Notes: generated by a model from the letters alone, not told the origin. Positions 26,672 to 36,354 are shown, numbered from the stretch's first letter. The stretch: DNA of 64,000 nucleotides from Alphaproteobacteria bacterium (GCA_963555825.3 CAUVXB020000001.1:192001-256000), one strand, 5' to 3'. Numbers and translations: made by a program.

Positions 26672-28477
26672 GATGCCGTCTTCCTGGCCTTCACACGACC
26701 GACGCACGCATCGGGTACGCGACGCGGGAGCCCGGCTATATCCTCGGCGAATCGTTCGAACAATTGCAACGCGATTTGTCGTGACGCGTCGGCCATGCGA
26801 TTGGTCTCCTCGAGCAACTCGTCGGGATCGACGCCTACCTCGGCGAGCTCATGGGGATAGGTCTTCACCCAGACGTCCATGATTTCCGGTGTGACCTCCG
26901 GGTGAAACTGCACCCCGAGGCTGCGACCGATGATGAATACCTGCGGACCTGCATCGCTGTCGGCCACCAGCTTCGCGTCTCGCGGGAGGGTGAAGGTGTC
27001 GAAATGCCACTGAAACCAGGGCCCTTCCGGCACCAGTTCCACGTTGCTGCTTCGCACCGGAAGCCACCCTACCTCCGACAGCTCGCCGCGATAGCACTCC
27101 CCGCCGAGGATCCGTGCCAGCAACTGGCCGCCGAAACAAAGACCGAGTATCGGAACCTCGGCCTCGGTCGCGTCGAGGAACAAGCGCTTCTCCCGCTCGA
27201 TCCACGGGAGCCAATCATCGAAGGCCGCGTACTGGGAGCCGAGAGACGCGAGGAGGTCGTAGTCCCGGGGGTCGACGTTCCGGTCGTCCAGGTCGATACG
27301 GAACACGTCCACAGCCGCGCCCAGATCAGCGAGCCACTCACTGAGCACACCCGGCGGCGTGGCGTCTTCGTGCTGTACGATCAGCGCCCGCACGTTGCCG
27401 TCAGTTTCGCTCACGGCGCATCTCCTTCCGCGACGGCAGGCGAACGGTATCCTTGCCGGGACAGCTCGCGCTCAACCTGCTCGGCCACTTCTGCCACCGA
27501 GGCGGCAAAGCGACGAACCATCTCCGCGAGGTCCGCTTCGGTGGTCACGAATGGCGGGGCGAAGAGGCTTTGATCTCCCGCATACCCGTCGCCAGTGGGC
27601 TGTGTGGAGAGGACGAGCAGCCCGTTCCTGGCAGCGGCTTGATCGATTCGACCGGCCACCCCCAGCTCGCGCGGGAGAAACGACCACCCGTCGCGGGGGT
27701 CGACGTAGTCGACGCCGAGCAGAAAACCGTGGCCACGTACCTCACCCATGAGATCGATCCCGGCGAGCGCGGCCTCGAGCTCCTCTCGAAGCGGGGGTCC
27801 ACGCGCCGCAACGTGCTCCACGAGCCCTTCGGAGCGCAAGGCGTCGATCACGGCAACACCAACCGCACAGGACAACGGAGCCCCGTCCCAGGTGTGACCC
27901 AGCGGAAACGCACGAGACCCATCGGCGACCGCGCAGTAGACGTGCTCGCGGCAGATCGCTGCACCGATCGCGGCGTACCCGGCACCCAGACCCTTCGCCG
28001 TGGCAATGATGTCGGGGAGCATGGGCAAACCCTCGGCCGCGAACCATCGTCCGGTTCGGCCCATGCCGGTGACGACCTCATCGAAACAGATCAGGAACCC
28101 GTGACGCTCGCGGCGCTCGGCCAGCCCCTCCCAGAACCGTGCCGGAGGCGAGTACGCGGGCAACGCCGCCGCACTGATCGGCTCACAGAAAAACGCCGAG
28201 ACCGTCTCGGGCCCGGCCTCCTCTAGCGCACGATCGAGCGCCTCGAGGGCGGCTTCACCGGTTGGATCGAACCGCTTCGTGCTCGGCGGTATGTGCAGAT
28301 GCTCGCTCAGATACGGAACGAACGGTCCCTGGAGCCCAGGACGTCCCGTCAACGCCAACGCCGCCATCGTGGCTCCGTGATACGCCTGCGCCGGCGAAAT
28401 CACCCGCCACCGCTGCGGTTCCCCTCGGTCGACGTGATACACCCGCGCCAGCCGAAGCGCCGTCTCGTTCGCCTCGG
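25920..28477. repeat. 430-bp identical direct repeat (25920-26349 and 28048-28477) inside the two aminotransferases
   Basis: Identical by visual comparison; flanking sequence diverges. Confidence 0.9.
26668..27414 (-). CDS. Type 1 glutamine amidotransferase (putative gamma-glutamyl hydrolase)
   Basis: GLCFGGQ nucleophile elbow; QWHFD and QFHPE motifs. Confidence 0.92.
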   Translation of the reverse strand: MSETDGNVRALIVQHEDATPPGVLSEWLADLGAAVDVFRIDLDDRNVDPRDYDLLASLGSQYAAFDDWLPWIEREKRLFLDATEAEVPILGLCFGGQLLARILGGECYRGELSEVGWLPVRSSNVELVPEGPWFQWHFDTFTLPRDAKLVADSDAGPQVFIIGRSLGVQFHPEVTPEIMDVWVKTYPHELAEVGVDPDELLEETNRMADASRQIALQLFERFAEDIAGLPRRVPDACVGRVKARKTAS

Positions 28478-28805
28478 ATCCGCTGGTGACGAACCGGACG
28501 CGGGTGAAGCCCCCGGGCGCGACGTCGACGAGCTCGCGGGCGAGGCGTTCCTGCCACGGGTTCGTGAGCCGCTCGTTGTGGACGTAGGCGAGCCGCTTCG
28601 CCTGGTTGCGTGCCACCTCGATCAGATCGCGGCGCCCGTGCCCGAGCGTTGCCGCCATTGAGCCACCGCTCATTGCGTCCAGATAGCGCCGCCCCGCCGA
28701 ATCCTCGACCCAGACACCCTCGCCCCGGACAACGACGGGATATGGCCGGTCTAGTACCAGGGGGAGAACCGACGTAGACGCGCTGTCAACGCTCGATGTC
28801 GTCAT
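27411..28805 (-). CDS. Class III PLP aminotransferase (paralog)
   Basis: SGSEANE, FDEVVTG and AKGLGAG motifs. Confidence 0.93.
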   Translation of the reverse strand: MTTSSVDSASTSVLPLVLDRPYPVVVRGEGVWVEDSAGRRYLDAMSGGSMAATLGHGRRDLIEVARNQAKRLAYVHNERLTNPWQERLARELVDVAPGGFTRVRFVTSGSEANETALRLARVYHVDRGEPQRWRVISPAQAYHGATMAALALTGRPGLQGPFVPYLSEHLHIPPSTKRFDPTGEAALEALDRALEEAGPETVSAFFCEPISAAALPAYSPPARFWEGLAERRERHGFLICFDEVVTGMGRTGRWFAAEGLPMLPDIIATAKGLGAGYAAIGAAICREHVYCAVADGSRAFPLGHTWDGAPLSCAVGVAVIDALRSEGLVEHVAARGPPLREELEAALAGIDLMGEVRGHGFLLGVDYVDPRDGWSFLPRELGVAGRIDQAAARNGLLVLSTQPTGDGYAGDQSLFAPPFVTTEADLAEMVRRFAASVAEVAEQVERELSRQGYRSPAVAEGDAP

Positions 28806-29072
28806 TTTAATTGGCGCCTTGGAAATAACGGCGTGATGCGATGTGGGAGGTGGTCAGCATCGTGCCGACGAGAACCCGTTCGCGGGTTCACCATAAGCCA
28901 CTTCCCGTGGCGATAGTCAACGTTCCTGGCCCAGGCGCCCAGTCCTCCCGTAAGCGTTCGTTCAGGCCGTGGAATGGGTCCCGTCAAGCGCATCTCCCAC
29001 GTTGAGGCGAGGCCCCACAAGGTGCTGTCTTTCTGCTGGTAACGCGATTTGCCATGCGCTATCGTCGTGCGC

Positions 29073-32000
29073 ATGGTGGTTCTGGACGAGGATTTTGGCA
29101 CCAACCTGACGCTGGTCGAGGGTAATGGCGGGGTCCGGTTGTCCCCCGTGTCGGTGCCGGAGCACGCGCCGCGCGACTGGCGGTCACAGTGTGAGCGGGA
29201 ACGGGCGCGGGCGGACGCGGCCGAAGCGCGCGCGGAAGAGCTGCGCTGGGCGGAAGTGGCCGCCCGCAGCGATGGCGGTTCGTGGAAGTCTCGGTTCAAG
29301 GCCTGCCGGCGCAGGCTGAGTGAGGCCGTCGAAGAGACGAAGGAAGCCCGCCGCACGGCAAGGGACGTGCCGTCCTTGCAGGCGGAAGTGGCGCGCCTGG
29401 AGACGCTCCTTTCTGAAGCCGGCATCGCGTCGGCCTTCGATACGGCCGGGGCGCTGCGCAAGGAGAACGCCCGGCTGCGCAAGGCCCTGGCGGCATCGAA
29501 GGCCCGAGAGGGCGCGACCGGGCCGTGGCCCGCTCCGCCCCGGCGGCGCACCGTCCTGGAGCCTTCCCCGGACCAGAAGGAGACCGTCAGGTCGCTTCGC
29601 ACGGAACTCCGCCGGCTCGACAAGGAGGTGGTCCGGCGGGACAAGGAGAACGCCCGGCTGAACACGCGCCTCGACCAGGAGAAGGAGAGGACGGAGCGCA
29701 TCAGGGAGACCGCGAAGAAGCTGTCCAGCGAGTCCCTTCGGCTCCACCGGGAGGTGAGGATACTGGGCGACGCCGAGGCCCGCGCCCGGTCGCTGTCCGA
29801 CGAGGTTTTCTGGCTGCGCCATGCCCTGGAGGTGTCCAAAGCCGGTAAGGAGAAGTTGAAGGCCCGGCTCGCCAAGCTTCGGGCGGCCGGGGCGACCCTG
29901 TCGAAGCTGCCGTCCGACGAGGCCGCTCAACTGCGCGCGGCGTTAAGGCGATCACGGCGTCAGAAGACGACGATCAACGCGCTGCGCAAGGGCAACGCCC
30001 GTCTGCGCAGGACCATGCGGGAGTTGGAGACCCGGAAAGCGGCGCTGGCGGTTCAGCCTGCCAAGCTTCGCGCGATCAGGAAGGCACTCGAGTCCGAGCT
30101 TGCCGGGCTTCGGGCGGTCAGGAAGACGTTGTCGAAGTCGCTGTCCGTTGCAGACGCCGATCTCCGCAGGGCTCTGCGAAGGTCGCGGCGCCAGAAGGCT
30201 ACGATCAAGTCGCTGTCCCGGGAGAACGCCCGCCTGCGCAAGGGCGCGAAGACGTCGCGGAACCGGATCGAGACACTGGAAGTCCAGCTTGAGAGGCTTC
30301 GTGCGACCGGGGCGGTGCTGTCGAGGGCGCTCTACGGCCGCAAGAGCGAGCAGCAGGACAAGCCGGGCTCGGAACACAAGCGCGGCCAGCAGCGCGGCGC
30401 GCCCGGCCACGGCCGCACCCAGCGGCCCGGGCTCGATGAGCGCACCGAAGAGCACAACCCGCCGCCGGATGCGTGCGTCTGCGGCCGGTGCGGGCAGCCC
30501 TATGCGCCGAACGGCGCCGAGGAATCCACCCTCGTCGAGATCGAGGTCAAGGCCTACAAGCGCGTGATCCGCCGTCCGCGCTGGCGCCGGACCTGCGAGT
30601 GCGCGTCGTCGCCCATGGAAGTGTCGGCGCCCCCGGTGCCGCGGCTGTTCCCCAGGACGCTCTACGGGACCAGCTTCTGGGCACGCTTCCTGTTCGAGCA
30701 CTGTGCCTGCTTCCGCCCCGTGCACCGCGTTGCCGCGTGGATGTCCGCCCAAGGGCTGACGGTCTCGCCGGGGACGCTGGCCGACAGCCTGAAGCGGTTC
30801 GTGCCGCTGCTCGAGCCGCTGGCCGAGGCGATCCTTGCGCACCAGAACAAGGCGGCGCTGCGCCATGCCGACGAGACCAGCTGGCGCGTCCAGGAACTTC
30901 GCGGGGAAGACCGCTCGAGCCGCGCCTGGCTGTGGGTCTCGGTCAGCAATGACGCGGTCTCTTTCCATATCGACCCCTCGCGCAGCGCCGAGGCGGCGCA
31001 GAAGCTGTTCGGCGACGCTCTCCTCGACACGGTCATCGTCTGCGATCGCTATAGCGCCTACAAGCGACTCGCTCGCCTTCGCGAGGGCAAGGTGACCCTT
31101 GCATTCTGTTGGTCCCATATGCGCCGCGATTTTGTCGAGTGCGCGGCCGGCCAGGTGAGACTGACGGACTGGTGCCAGGGATGGATCGAGCGGATCGCGT
31201 CGATCTACCGCCTGAACGAGGCGAGGTTGGCTCATTACGACCCCGTGATCAAGCGCCAGACGCCGGCGTTCGACGCGGCGCAGGGCGCGTTGAAGGCGGC
31301 GCTCGACGGCCTGTTCGCGGAGGCCGCCCGGGAGTTGGTCGGCCTGCCGGACCAGGCGCGCCAGGGCAGGGCGCTGCGCTCGCTGCTGAACCATCGCGAA
31401 GGGCTGAGCGTGTTCGTCGACCGCCCGCAGGTGCCTCTGGATAACAATCGCGCCGAAAGATTGTTACGAGGTCCGGCCATAGCAGCCCGTTGATTAAGTG
31501 GCTTTTTCCGGCTCTCACTCCCAGATGAGGAATGCGGCGGCGAAAACCGTCTGGCCGCTTTGCGAGACCCCCAGTGCGACCAGCATGGCCCCGGTGGGCG
31601 TGAGCAGCACGAAAATACCGCCATATCCGCCCGCCACGGCCTCCCGCGGGGTGCCGGCGCCGATGAGCTGGCGCATCAGCAACGATAGGTTGTGGCCGGC
31701 GACGTGGAGCAGGTATCGCTTGTGCACGTTCTCGCGGCCCCGAAGCCAGGTCCGGCGCATGCCGCCGCGATCGAGGTTGTGGGCGAAGGAGCGCTCGACG
31801 ATCTCGGCGCGCAGCTTGAAGGCTTGCTTGGCCACCCCCGATAACAGCCGGGTCCGGTTGTTGGTGACCGCGCGCCGCGCCGCCTCGTCGCCGCGCCAGC
31901 GCGCGAAGCCCTTCTGCTTGGGCTCGGCGATCCGGGTCTTCCACGGGCCGTTGTCCAAGGCCTTCAAGACCGCCCGTGAGTGATAGCCTTTGTCGGTCAC

Positions 32001-33176
32001 ACATTCGGCCGGGTCCTCTGCCGTCGGCGCCGCGTCAACGCTCGCAAGGTTCTCCTTGGCCGTCTCCAACGTTTTGGGAAGCGTCGTCGTGTCGCCCTCG
32101 TCGGCCGGGTGCAGCTCGGCGGCCACCACCGCGCCGGTGTCCAGATCCACCGCGTGCTCGGGCTTGTAGGCCAGATGCGTCGTGCCGTCCTTCATCTTGG
32201 CGATCTTGGCCTCGGGGTCGCTCTTCGAACCCAGTCCTCGTTGGAAAGCTTCTTGCCCTTGCGCTTGCGGTCCAGACGCGCCAGGTCCTCGGCCGTGGGC
32301 GTCTCGATGCCGCTCTCCCGGGCCAGGTGCTCCAGCATCTCCCGGTAGCCTTCACCCGTGTCGCGCCGCACGATGTTGCGCAGCGCCGCGTTGGCCTCCA
32401 TGGTCGAGGCATCCACCCCGATGCGCTCGCCCTTCACCAGACCCGCCTCGCCGATCAAGGCCAGAACCCAGTCGAAGACCGCCGCGTGGACTTCATGGGG
32501 CAGGCGCGCGCGGGTCTTCGACAGCCAGGAATGGTCCGGCACCCGCTCACGGCTCCCCAGTCGCAGGAACTCCCGCAGCGACAGGGAATCCGAGCAACGC
32601 CACTCCAGACCGCGCTCTGAGTCGATGCCCTCGAAGTAGCCCACCAGGTGCATGCGGAAATAGCGCCCGGGCGGCACCGAGGGCGCGCCCATCCTGGCCG
32701 CGTAATAGGGCCGGCAGCTCGCCTCGGCAAAGGCGTCGAAGCCGCCCTCGATCAGCACCGACTGCAGGCGGTCGTAAAACACATGACCCGGCGAGCGCGG
32801 CATCTCCGCCCAGCCCACCATCAAGTCCCCCTGACGATCCTTCTGCTGTCCCATCGCCATCGGCGAATCCTCCGGTCAAATCAGAACATCAAAGAATCAG
32901 ACCAGGCCGCTTGCGTCCAGTGCCGACTTCGTCAACGGGCTGATAGGGCGACGGCTGTCGTTCGGTTCCGACAGCGAGGACGGCGCCAGGTTCACGGCGA
33001 TCATGTACTCGGTGGTGGGCACGCTCTCGATGAATGGCATCGACATCCTGAGCTGGCTGGACACGTGGCTCGCAGCGTGCGCGGAGAACGATCGCAAACC
33101 ACCGGACGACCTGTCGCCGTGGCTGCCATGGTCGATGAGCGAGGAGCGCAGGCGCGAACTCATGGCGCCGGCGTGA
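29073..33176 (+). pseudogene. IS66 TnpC-type transposase with ~400-aa coiled-coil extension, split by IS1182 (29073-31482 plus 32947-33176)
   Basis: YGRKSE, CxCxxC zinc finger, HADET, CDRYSAY, CWSHMRR and DNNRAERLLR|GRRLSFGS motifs. Confidence 0.88.
31483..32942 (-). mobile_element. IS1182-family element with frameshifted transposase (32860-32192 and 32195-31515)
   Basis: IR CAGCCCGTTGA / TCAACGGGCTG; 4-bp TSD ATAG; PDHSWLS, GVDASTM and TDKGYH motifs. Confidence 0.88.
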
Positions 33177-34054
33177 CCGGCGCGATCGAGTGCCGTTATT
33201 ACGGCCGCGACTTCACCGCCGGGGAAATGGCGCTGCTGCGCGCGCTGATCGCCGGGCCGCCGCCGTTGAACCGCCATATGCTGTCGAAGGAGTTCTGCCG
33301 GCGCATCGGCTGGTTCAAGCCCGACGGCGGCCTCAAGGACATGATGGCCAGGGTCGCCATGCTGGCCATGCACAGGGACGGCCTGATCGCCCTGCCGGCG
33401 CCGCAGGGACGGCAGAACCGGCCCGGGCCGATCGTCTTCGGGCCGGACACCGAAGCGCCGCTGTTCCCGGCCCCGACGACCCTCGACAAGGTCCGTCCGC
33501 TCGACCTGCGCCCCGTCGTGCGCGGCACCCGGGAGAGCAAGCTCTGGAACGAGTTCGTCGCCCGCTACCACTATCTCGGATACAAGACCCTGGTCGGCGC
33601 CCAGATGCGCTACGCCGTCCACGACCGCGACGGCTGGCCGCTCGCCATGCTCGGCTTCTCCACCGCCGCGTGGAAGCTCGCCCCGCGCGACAACTTCATC
33701 GGATGGACACGGCAGAAGCGCGAGAAGAACCTTCCCTTCGTGGTCGACAACCCGAGATTCCTGATCCTGCCCTGGATCAATATCCCCAACCTGGGTTCGC
33801 ACATCCTGGCCATCATCCGCCGGCGCCTGCCCGATGACTGGACCGAGCGCTACAACACCACGCCCGTGCTCATCGAGACCTTCGTCGAGACCCCGCGCTA
33901 CACCGGCGCCGTTTACAGGGCCTCCGGCTGGACCCGCGTCGGGACCACCCAGGGGCGCGGGCGCTACGACCGGGACAGGCAGTCCGACAAGCCTAAAAAG
34001 GATGTCTGGCTCCGGCCCCTGCGACGGGATTGGAAACGCACCCTCAATCGCTAA
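33173..34054 (+). CDS. DUF4338 (Druantia DruA-like) domain protein, IS66 passenger
   Basis: HYLGYKTLVGAQMRY, RDNFIGW, RFLILPW, ETFVE and GAVYRASGW motifs; GTG start overlaps the transposase stop (GTGA). Confidence 0.85.
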   Translation: MTGAIECRYYGRDFTAGEMALLRALIAGPPPLNRHMLSKEFCRRIGWFKPDGGLKDMMARVAMLAMHRDGLIALPAPQGRQNRPGPIVFGPDTEAPLFPAPTTLDKVRPLDLRPVVRGTRESKLWNEFVARYHYLGYKTLVGAQMRYAVHDRDGWPLAMLGFSTAAWKLAPRDNFIGWTRQKREKNLPFVVDNPRFLILPWINIPNLGSHILAIIRRRLPDDWTERYNTTPVLIETFVETPRYTGAVYRASGWTRVGTTQGRGRYDRDRQSDKPKKDVWLRPLRRDWKRTLNR

Positions 34055-34149
34055 AATCGGCCGGGGCGAATGGAAACGCCCGCGCTGATTCCACGGCCTG
34101 AACGAACGCTTACGTCCTCCCCCGCTTGATTGCCTGGTTTGGCCTCCTC

Positions 34150-34990: not shown

Positions 34991-36354
34991 AAAAGTTGTG
35001 TATGGGCTGATCATGCGGCGGCGCGATCCTGGCGTTCTCCATCTACGAATTTGACGCCGCGAATGATCTCGGCGAGATGGTTCGATCCATCGAGTTTTCT
35101 CCATTTTCTCTGAGCGCACTGGCATAGTTTGAAGACCATGGCCATCGCCGTCTTGCGCGACAGGCAGCCCTTGGTCCGGTAGGTGCGCAGACGAACCGTG
35201 GCGAACGTGCTCTCGATGGGGTTGGTCGTGCGTACATGCTTCCAGTGCTCGGCGGGGAAGTCGTAGAACGTCAGCAGGACGTCGCGGTCCTTGGCCAGGC
35301 AGGCCGCGGCCTTGTCGTACTTCGGCCCGTAGGCTTCCAGGAAGAAGTCGAAGGCGCTCTCGGCATCCTTCCTGGTTTCGGCCATCCAGATGTCTTGCAG
35401 GCGCCCCTTGGCTTTCTTTTGCAGACCCTTGGGCAGCTTGTTCAAGACGTTGCCCGTCTTGTGAACCCAGCAGCGTTGCTCGCGGGCGCCTGGGTAGACT
35501 TGGCGGAGCGCCTTCCAGAAGCCGAGCGCGCCGTCGCCGAGCGCCAGTTGCGGACCCATTTCAAGGCCGCGCCGCTTGAGATCGAGCAGAACTTCGAGCC
35601 AGGACTGCTCACTTTCGCGATAGCCGTCGGCGATGGCGATCAGTTCCTTCTGTCCCTTGTCCGTGGCCCCGACGATCACCAGGATGCACTGCTTCTCTTC
35701 CTCCATGCGGGCGCTGAAATAGATGCCGTCCACCCAGAAATAGACGTAGCGCTTGGCCGTGAGGTCGCGCCGTTGCCAGCGCTCCGCCTCAACCCCCCAG
35801 ACCTCTTTCAGCCGGGTGATCGTGGAGGCCGAAAGCCCCGGCGCGGAGCTCCCCAGGAGCGCCGCCAAGGCTTCCCCGAAGTCGCCGGTGGAAATGCCCT
35901 TCAGATACAGCCATGGCAAAAGGTCTTCCAGGCTCTTGGCGCGGCGCAGATAGCGCGGCAGGATCGCCGACGTGAAGCGGATGGCGCCGTCCCCCCGGTC
36001 CCGCACACGGGGTTGGCGCACGCTCACCGGGCCGATCCCGGTCTGGATGAAGCGTTCCGGCAGATATCCATTGCGGACAACCCGGCGGCGGCCGGCGGCG
36101 TCAACAAGCGCCGCATGGCTACCCAAAAACACGGAGACCTCGGCCTCAACGGCTTGGGCCAACAACTCGCGAGCTCCAGCTTGTAGGACTTCCGTCAACG
36201 GATCTTTCTGAAAATCAGATGGGTTTTGAAAAGCAACAACGGTATTCTCTTTCATGGCGTATCCTTCCTTGGCTTAGCTCAAGTGGTGACATCAACAATC
36301 ACCAGGATACGCCGCCTTCATTTCAACGCCGTACACAAGATTCGGTTATAGCTC
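34988..36354 (-). mobile_element. IS256-family element, copy 3 (transposase 35011-36255)
   Basis: Identical transposase; outer right IR displaced by the ISNCY insertion. Confidence 0.93.

Follow-up and report, generated by a model that had tools for sequence, protein, structure and literature searches.

The insertion sequence (IS) at positions 28950-34113 of a 64,000-nucleotide stretch of DNA from an Alphaproteobacteria bacterium (GCA_963555825.3 CAUVXB020000001.1:192001-256000; the whole stretch is referred to as the window) is one copy of an active two-gene member of the IS66 family. The two genes are coupled and move as a whole between terminal inverted repeats (IRs). The first, tnpC, encodes the transposase. 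The second encodes a 293-amino acid protein of the Pfam family PF14236 (DruA/DUF4338), called the partner here, whose main domain is predicted to have the GNAT fold. An earlier note, generated from the sequence alone, had drawn attention to this pair and had raised DNA modification, regulation of transposition and defense as possible roles of the second gene. The reading preferred here, at a probability of roughly 55%, is that the partner is an integral participant in transposition and not a defense cargo.

Both ends of the element were read directly and give a length of 5164 bp. A repeat search returned arms at 28949-28975 and 34088-34114 that are 100% complementary, and direct reading places the true IRs at 28950-28975 (plus strand) and 34088-34113 (minus strand). 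These 26-bp IRs are perfect, have the sequence GTAAGCGTTCGTTCAGGCCGTGGAAT and carry a GTAAGCG tip. An 8-bp target duplication, GTCCTCCC, lies directly outside both of them (28942-28949 and 34114-34121). A second IS of the IS5/IS1182 type is nested at 31483-32942 on the minus strand and splits tnpC. It is 1460 bp long, has its transposase in two frames and is flanked on each side by ATAG (31479-31482 and 32943-32946). Subtraction of the nested IS and its 4-bp duplication (5164 - 1464) leaves 3700 bp, which is the length of uninterrupted sister copies.

The 5' part of tnpC (29073-31482, plus strand) encodes an internally repetitive coiled coil of about 430 amino acids, a Cys cluster and the larger part of the catalytic domain. 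It matches Pfam DDE_Tnp_IS66 (PF03050) with an E value of 9e-54 and 183 bits (cutoff 23.1) and the NCBIfam IS66 model NF033517 with 2e-66 and 224.5 bits (cutoff 180). The 3' part (32947-33176, plus strand) consists of the last 76 codons and the TGA at 33174-33176, and its 76-residue product matches the last positions of the same NCBIfam model (343-386, E = 2e-7). Translation from the ATG at 29073 with the nested IS removed yields 879 amino acids; an in-frame TTG is also present at 29049, and only ~100-120 nt separate the left IR from the tnpC start. The partner gene occupies 33173-34054 on the plus strand. Its GTG at 33173 overlaps the tnpC stop codon (GTGA). It encodes a small N-terminal domain (residues 1-68), a linker and a putative Mom-like GNAT domain (residues 104-293). 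The IRs, the duplication, the 3700-bp unit and the restriction of its content to an ~879-residue TnpC and an overlapping 293-residue protein are thus as the earlier note had described them.

IS66-family elements have IRs of ~20-30 bp that start with GTAA and generate an 8-bp target duplication. Canonical members (IS66, IS679 and ISRm14) are arranged tnpA-tnpB-tnpC. The window element resembles them in its DDE_Tnp_IS66 scores above the cutoffs, the Cys cluster ahead of the catalytic domain, the GTAA-tipped IRs and the 8-bp duplication. It differs in the ~430 residues of repeated coiled coil, in the GNAT-fold gene that follows tnpC and in the content upstream of tnpC. No tnpB is found in any copy of the element, as judged by PF05717 (TnpB_IS66), and tnpA was not searched for separately. 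The three PF05717 matches in the genome (C1:2397976, C2:662772 and C2:650870) belong to canonical IS66 elements located elsewhere. The earlier note's statement that TnpA and TnpB are missing stands within that scope. A canonical TnpC of the same genome has a 544-codon open frame compared with ~879 amino acids for the window element. ISBst12-type IS66 elements consist of a transposase only. They are alike in having an IS66-type transposase without tnpA or tnpB, and unlike them the window-type elements always have a second, coupled and strongly conserved gene; ISBst12 was compared by description only.

The activity of the element is evident from its copies in the same genome (two contigs, 6.04 Mb, 65% G+C). 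Nine IR-bounded copies were found, the window's own and eight uninterrupted ones of 3700 or 3701 bp, and seven of the nine are flanked by their own, distinct 8-bp duplications. The 3700-bp copies have 0-16 differences from one copy taken as the reference. An 889-codon tnpC frame is open in all eight uninterrupted copies (8/9 of the total), and the partner frame is likewise intact in eight of the nine. Four end fragments of the element are also present. Searches for PF14236 gave 13 matches in the genome that represent 11 places, all of them within element copies or fragments and between tnpC and the right IR. The window copy is unable to move by itself because the nested IS splits its transposase gene, and recent movement is better shown by the eight sister copies than by the window copy. 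The joint recent movement that the earlier note had read from the window copy therefore holds for the element through its sister copies, and self-mobility does not hold for this particular copy. Contigs from four metatranscriptomic libraries cover both genes, and two of them join 31478 to 32943 as in the uninterrupted form. Such contigs cannot show strand, ends or level, and they are weak evidence of expression because DNA can occur in such libraries.

The pair recurs in other genomes. A scan of one genome per species returned 431 stretches with a close relative of the partner; 76 loci were retained, from Alpha- and Gammaproteobacteria plus a single Thermodesulfobacteriota assembly, with partner identities of 79-99%. 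The C terminus of a TnpC is encoded directly upstream on the same strand for 87 of the 89 partner-gene copies at these loci. One of the two exceptions is cut by a contig end, and the other (L078) has no TnpC match. The junction between the genes is ATGA or GTGA in at least 85 of the 89 copies. A tip-anchored scan of the 65 loci with full flanks detected, in 32, a pair of GTAA-tipped IRs with nothing but the two genes between them (2.9-3.7 kb), and 22 of these have identical 8-bp flanks, each different. The remaining 33 loci gave no IR pair by the criteria used, and many are interrupted. Recurrence of the transposase-DUF4338 pair at different sites, which the earlier note had proposed to look for, is thus seen both within this genome and beyond it. 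A plasmid collection contained only two records with a relative.

The partner gene is under purifying selection. Comparison of 25 non-redundant elements gave a median nonsynonymous rate (dN) of 0.106, a median synonymous rate (dS) of 0.443 and a median dN/dS of 0.25, calculated over 298 of 300 pairs after two were dropped for low or undefined dS. Identity of the partner to the window protein exceeds the identity of the last 500 TnpC residues in 22 of 23 loci.

New copies were also seen right at the ends of resident copies (G000:C1:1317492-1317650 and G000:C2:3234380-3234760, with the related loci L011, L081 and L082). At one junction, a 122-bp remnant of a right end is separated from the full copy that follows by 1 bp and then the duplication GTTCGCGG. 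At another, the right end of a full copy is followed by 7 bp and then a 348-bp left-end fragment. Of 41 IR-bounded copies, 5 have a strict tip motif no more than 40 nt beyond an end, compared with an expectation of 0.002 per copy. This arrangement may hint that IS66 transposition targets element ends or passes through tandem or circle-junction intermediates. The 29 duplication-flanked sites gave no target-site consensus (≤0.3 bits in any column).

Association of the partner domain with transposases extends beyond IS66. Fifteen long proteins were scanned from the best 150 of 8337 cluster representatives of the family. The partner domain and DDE_Tnp_IS66 are joined in one protein in seven cases (P0189, P0197, P0213, P0164, P0122 and P0194, plus P0052 from a search of 90% clusters), and in five of the 15 long proteins the partner domain precedes domains of the Tn5/IS4 type (Tnp_DNA_bind, DDE_Tnp_1 and Dimer_Tnp_Tn5). 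PF14236 was searched for at E ≤ 1e-10 in 400 other genomes sampled evenly from the phylum, and 23 of these genomes contributed 28 loci. A transposase is adjacent or fused on the same strand at 15 loci, five encode long or full-length DruA proteins of the defense type, two have a transposase on the opposite strand, and six, mostly at contig ends, have no informative neighbor. The 15 comprise six fusions to DDE_Tnp_1_assoc, three Tn5-like transposases, three IS66 cases with the partner upstream of tnpC, two UPF0236 and one other DDE_Tnp_1. RefSeq plasmid annotation names such proteins "DUF4338 domain-containing protein" or, if fused, "ISAs1 family transposase." At one of the plasmid loci (L118, NZ_CP020372.1 278572-287441, from Thiodictyon), an inserted IS91 and an integrase gene lie between the DUF4338 gene and an IS4-family transposase gene, and two pieces of a DUF2235 gene flank the whole; the locus looks like a DUF4338-IS4 element hit by another IS.

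A TnpC tree of 25 sequences, built by a quick method and with some long branches, was used to place the window-type transposases. The 15 TnpCs with a downstream partner form one group (SH-aLRT 91) that is apart from the TnpB-linked TnpCs. The three TnpCs with an upstream partner are placed far away in the family, next to single-gene TnpCs. Their distance from the downstream group suggests more than one origin or rearrangement of the pairing. The N-terminal 430 residues of the window TnpC (29430-30270) appear as a coiled coil of about five diverged repeats with units like A-L-R-K-E-N-A-R-L-R-K-A-L, spaced 156-231 nt. Related elements vary in length by up to 0.8 kb, from which the repeat region appears to expand and contract.

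The partner belongs to a large family. The 293-residue protein matches PF14236 with E = 5e-40 and 137.8 bits (cutoff 27) over profile positions 44-225 of 297, in agreement with the DUF4338 assignment of the earlier note; no NCBIfam model matches it. A cutoff of E ≤ 1e-3 gives 8337 cluster representatives, one of E ≤ 1e-30 still gives 1007, and there are more than 5396 matches among 90% clusters. A family alignment of 35 sequences with 36-81% identity to the window protein has 14 invariant columns. An AlphaFold2 model of the protein (pLDDT, the score predicted for the local distance difference test, 92.4; predicted template modeling score (pTM) 0.80) shows a beta-beta-alpha-alpha-alpha domain (1-68), a linker and an alpha/beta domain (104-293).

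Structure comparison of the model predicts a GNAT fold for the partner domain, with Mom of phage Mu as the closest solved structure. Foldseek gave 243 Protein Data Bank (PDB) matches at E ≤ 1e-3. All 32 of those listed are GNAT-type acyltransferases, and among these Mom (8bv8_B) ranks 13th and has the highest TMq (0.42). VIA-align against 48,161 representative chains places Mom 8bv8_B first (Z 14.1, root-mean-square deviation 3.8, 167 of 202 residues aligned), with ordinary GNATs from Z 12.5 and 213 chains at Z ≥ 8. The accessible part of PMC10853773 reports that Aravind and colleagues also regard DUF4338 as a GNAT domain. Pfam Mom (PF25680) appears at E ≤ 1 in 14 of the 35 family members (best 0.0023), and no other acetyltransferase family does. 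The relative L094 reaches 8.8e-6 and 25.9 bits (cutoff 27.1). A language-model feature search that excluded PF14236 clusters ranked three Mom-bearing clusters first (0.87-0.89), which is a lead only. A PDB sequence search with the family profile returned only two chance-level rows (E 0.68 and 0.96).

Mom modifies the N6 position of adenine in double-stranded DNA with the help of glycyl-tRNA. According to the accessible part of PMC13219725, its activity needs R111, S124 and R151, and also H58, Y59, D149 and Y159, together with a helix-turn-helix (HTH)-like insertion at residues ~175-209. An hhalign comparison of the partner family with an alignment of 26 Mom sequences runs colinearly across 151 columns. 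In this low-probability alignment (9.4%), Mom H58/Y59 pair with partner H133/Y134, S124 with S209, D149 with E239, R151 with R242 (shifted by one column when Mu Mom alone is aligned) and Y159 with Y248. Most of the paired partner residues vary little or not at all across the 35-sequence alignment, including S209 and Y248, the counterparts of the essential S124 and Y159. The two proteins share the motifs H-Y, N-x-x-S and G-x-x-Y-x-A-x-x-[WF]. The GxxYxAxGW motif that the earlier note had likened to GNAT-fold Mom-type modifiers corresponds to G245-W253. It aligns with Mom G-V-V-Y159-Q-A-S-N-F and is placed in the GNAT domain by the model, a prediction that bears out the likeness. GNAT enzymes bind the pyrophosphate of acetyl-CoA through a Q/R-x-x-G-x-G/A motif; the partner region that corresponds by eye is P-N-L-G-S-H (205-210), like R-N-S-E-S of Mom. 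The partner is unlike Mom in scoring below the Pfam Mom cutoff, in having an extra N-terminal domain and in residing in insertion sequences instead of phages, and no com-like regulator was seen.

These features are consistent with the following role. The partner would be made together with TnpC by translational coupling. Its N-terminal domain would probably bring it to DNA, perhaps to the element ends, and its Mom-like active site, as modeled, would probably acylate or aminoacylate DNA within the transposition complex or close to it. The transposase itself is the less likely acceptor. The mark would label, protect or time the transposition reaction. A complex prediction for the last 500 residues of TnpC and the partner scored 0.01 against a mark of 0.32; it gives no verdict and was used neither way. 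A more specific proposal is that a DNA-directed, Mom-type acyl or aminoacyl transferase was recruited by several DDE transposase families and marks element ends or target as a required or timing step, so that base modification would belong to the transposition cycle, with the DruA proteins of Druantia type I as defense-side relatives. This version is given a small chance. If it is true, Druantia type I is suggested to mark or sense DNA by the same chemistry.

Several observations weigh against the partner as a Mom-like participant in transposition. The adjacency and fusion that speak for the role would be expected of a selfish cargo riding with transposases as well. Other single-gene IS66 elements are present in the same genome, which indicates that TnpC in general does not need this partner. 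The copy at C2:2488608-2492308 has a partner gene frameshifted by one extra base and still carries a target duplication; the frameshift may postdate the insertion and so says little. The link to Mom has its own weaknesses. Foldseek places SpeG-type acetyltransferases above Mom, and the VIA-align margin of Mom over ordinary GNATs is only 1.6 Z units. The window protein itself has no Pfam Mom match at E ≤ 1. The hhalign result is weak (E 0.0035), and its probability is 2.3% against Mu Mom alone. R111 of Mom is unpaired, opposite a gap in the 9.4% alignment. There is no counterpart of the HTH-like insertion, since no helix is modeled between strands 254-258 and 276-282; much of that insertion is also opposite gaps in the Mom-family profile alignment. 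The N-terminal domain folded alone has a pLDDT of 78.1. VIA-align matches it mostly to winged-helix DNA binders at Z 4.3-5.3, below the noise guide of the tool, and Foldseek finds nothing at E ≤ 1e-3. DNA binding by this domain is only a guess because the winged-helix matches are below noise and the Foldseek result is empty.

The alternative that survives best is an anti-restriction or host-modifying cargo, which has an appreciable though minor chance of being correct. Here a Mom-like enzyme modifies genome or element DNA globally against nucleases and rides on transposons to spread, with no part in the transposition reaction. Structurally, Mom is the closest match, and its Pfam family is the only one besides their own that relatives of the partner match. 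The known role of Mom is to shield DNA from restriction (accessible part of PMC13219725). The domain also occurs in large defense-type proteins with SspF/DndF-like parts (accessible part of PMC10853773). The genetic arrangement argues the other way. Ordinary cargo rarely shares a conserved stop-start overlap with the transposase, as in the at least 85 of 89 junctions here, and is not usually fused in one polypeptide with two unrelated transposase families. The partner is more conserved than the transposase, and all 11 PF14236 places in the genome are within IS copies.

It is a slim possibility that the partner regulates or inhibits transposition, or that it is a GNAT toxin of the addiction type joined to its own DNA-binding, antitoxin-like domain. 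Such a protein would limit the transposase or stabilize the element without modifying DNA. The two-domain build, with a small and possibly DNA-binding N terminus followed by a GNAT domain, fits this proposal, as does cotranslation with the transposase. In the Tn3 family, toxin-antitoxin pairs are reported to form an integral part of the transposition modules, which counts in its favor. Mom-type and toxin-type GNATs both handle charged tRNA, according to the accessible part of PMC13219725. Against it, no tRNA-acetylating toxin is found among the best 50 structural rows, where unlisted families are possible, and 11 places are many toxin copies for one genome. We know of no GNAT toxin fused to a transposase, and this too counts against a toxin.

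A Druantia-type DruA passenger that gives phage resistance, the defense role raised in the earlier note, is very improbable. The idea has the Pfam name of the family and its 137.8-bit match in its favor, together with a weak match to PADLOC DruA1 (27.1 bits, E 5e-7). That match covers positions 121-218 of 407 (98 positions), and the Pfam match itself spans only 44-225 of 297. Transposase-linked relatives score 18-25 bits on DruA1. Genuine DruA-type proteins from the phylum sample match the PADLOC DruA models end to end: L088 (401 amino acids) scores 267.7 bits over positions 40-383 of 407, and L104 (702 amino acids) scores 967 bits. The larger DruA-type forms carry SspF/DndF-like parts. Druantia is said to have been defined by Doron et al. 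2018 as DruA in an operon with DruB-DruE. The partner neither matches the PADLOC models over their full length nor lies in such an operon. No Druantia partner genes are found between tnpC and the right IR, where there is no room for them; DruE was not searched for in the rest of the genome. PF14236 occurs in the genome only within IS copies, and four other kinds of transposase have relatives of the protein beside them or fused to them. On this sequence evidence the partner is classed as something other than a Druantia DruA. It shares with DruA of Druantia type I the Pfam family and a core called a GNAT domain (accessible part of PMC10853773), and it differs in score (27 compared with 268-967 bits), in size (293 compared with 401-1177 amino acids) and in having a transposase as the companion gene. 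The Pfam name "DruA" is therefore misleading for this branch. The full-length DruA-type gene at L088 (G319:C1:2600364-2604227) adjoins a TniQ-family gene, which suggests a Druantia-like system on a Tn7-like transposon.

A decaying or spurious reading frame without function, to which the 65% G+C content and the many long overlapping frames on both strands of the region might point, is refuted as far as computation goes by the dN/dS of 0.25 over 298 pairs, the 8337 cluster representatives, the pLDDT of 92.4 and the 14 columns that are invariant at 36-81% identity.

The integral role favored here for the partner has parallels in other elements. TnpB of IS200/IS605 is a non-transposase gene integral to a transposon. 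Like TnpB and the toxin-antitoxin pairs of the Tn3 family, the partner is a conserved second gene in a minimal mobile element and not ordinary cargo. It differs from both in its fold and presumably in its chemistry, and its module spans several DDE transposase families, including in-frame fusions.

No publication that links DUF4338/DruA with IS66 or transposases was found in the searchable literature, which does not extend to ISfinder and subscription journals, and a YprA preprint (10.1101/2025.09.15.676423) mentions neither transposition nor IS66. The IS66 family and the GNAT nature of DUF4338 are known; an IS66-family branch with an undescribed enzyme-like partner appears to be new. The mechanism of IS66-family transposition is poorly understood. 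A large, still-moving branch of the family has a conserved enzyme-like partner in place of the usual accessory genes, and this partner also occurs beside, or joined in one protein with, DDE transposases of at least four other kinds. A part in transposition, if it has one, would make it a new class of transposition cofactor, possibly a DNA-modifying one. Thousands of proteins named "DruA" or "DUF4338" (8337 cluster representatives) are probably transposon parts and may be miscounted as Druantia defense genes. Tests of the element are straightforward, since it is available as intact copies, such as G000:C1:1317623-1321322, whose ends and target duplications are known.

The nested IS matches Pfam DUF772 and DDE_Tnp_1, and its NCBIfam IS1182/IS5 matches are below threshold because its gene lies in two frames. 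Nine further full-length copies are present in the genome, eight of 1461 bp (99.6-99.8% identity) and one of 1482 bp (98.2%), along with 13 partial matches at ~90% that belong to a related element. The nested copy is 1 bp shorter than the 1461-bp copies, a possible reason why its transposase occupies two frames. A repeat of ~845 bp starts ~26 bp to the right of the IS66 element and runs from 34148 to ~34992. It contains an IS1182-like N-terminal open reading frame (Pfam DUF772), has ~45 near-identical copies in the genome and may be a truncated, non-autonomous IS derivative that multiplied. Past this repeat, a 414-amino acid open reading frame at 35011-36255 (minus strand) resembles another transposase by appearance. 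On its other side, the IS cluster adjoins a class-III aminotransferase gene at 27411-28805.

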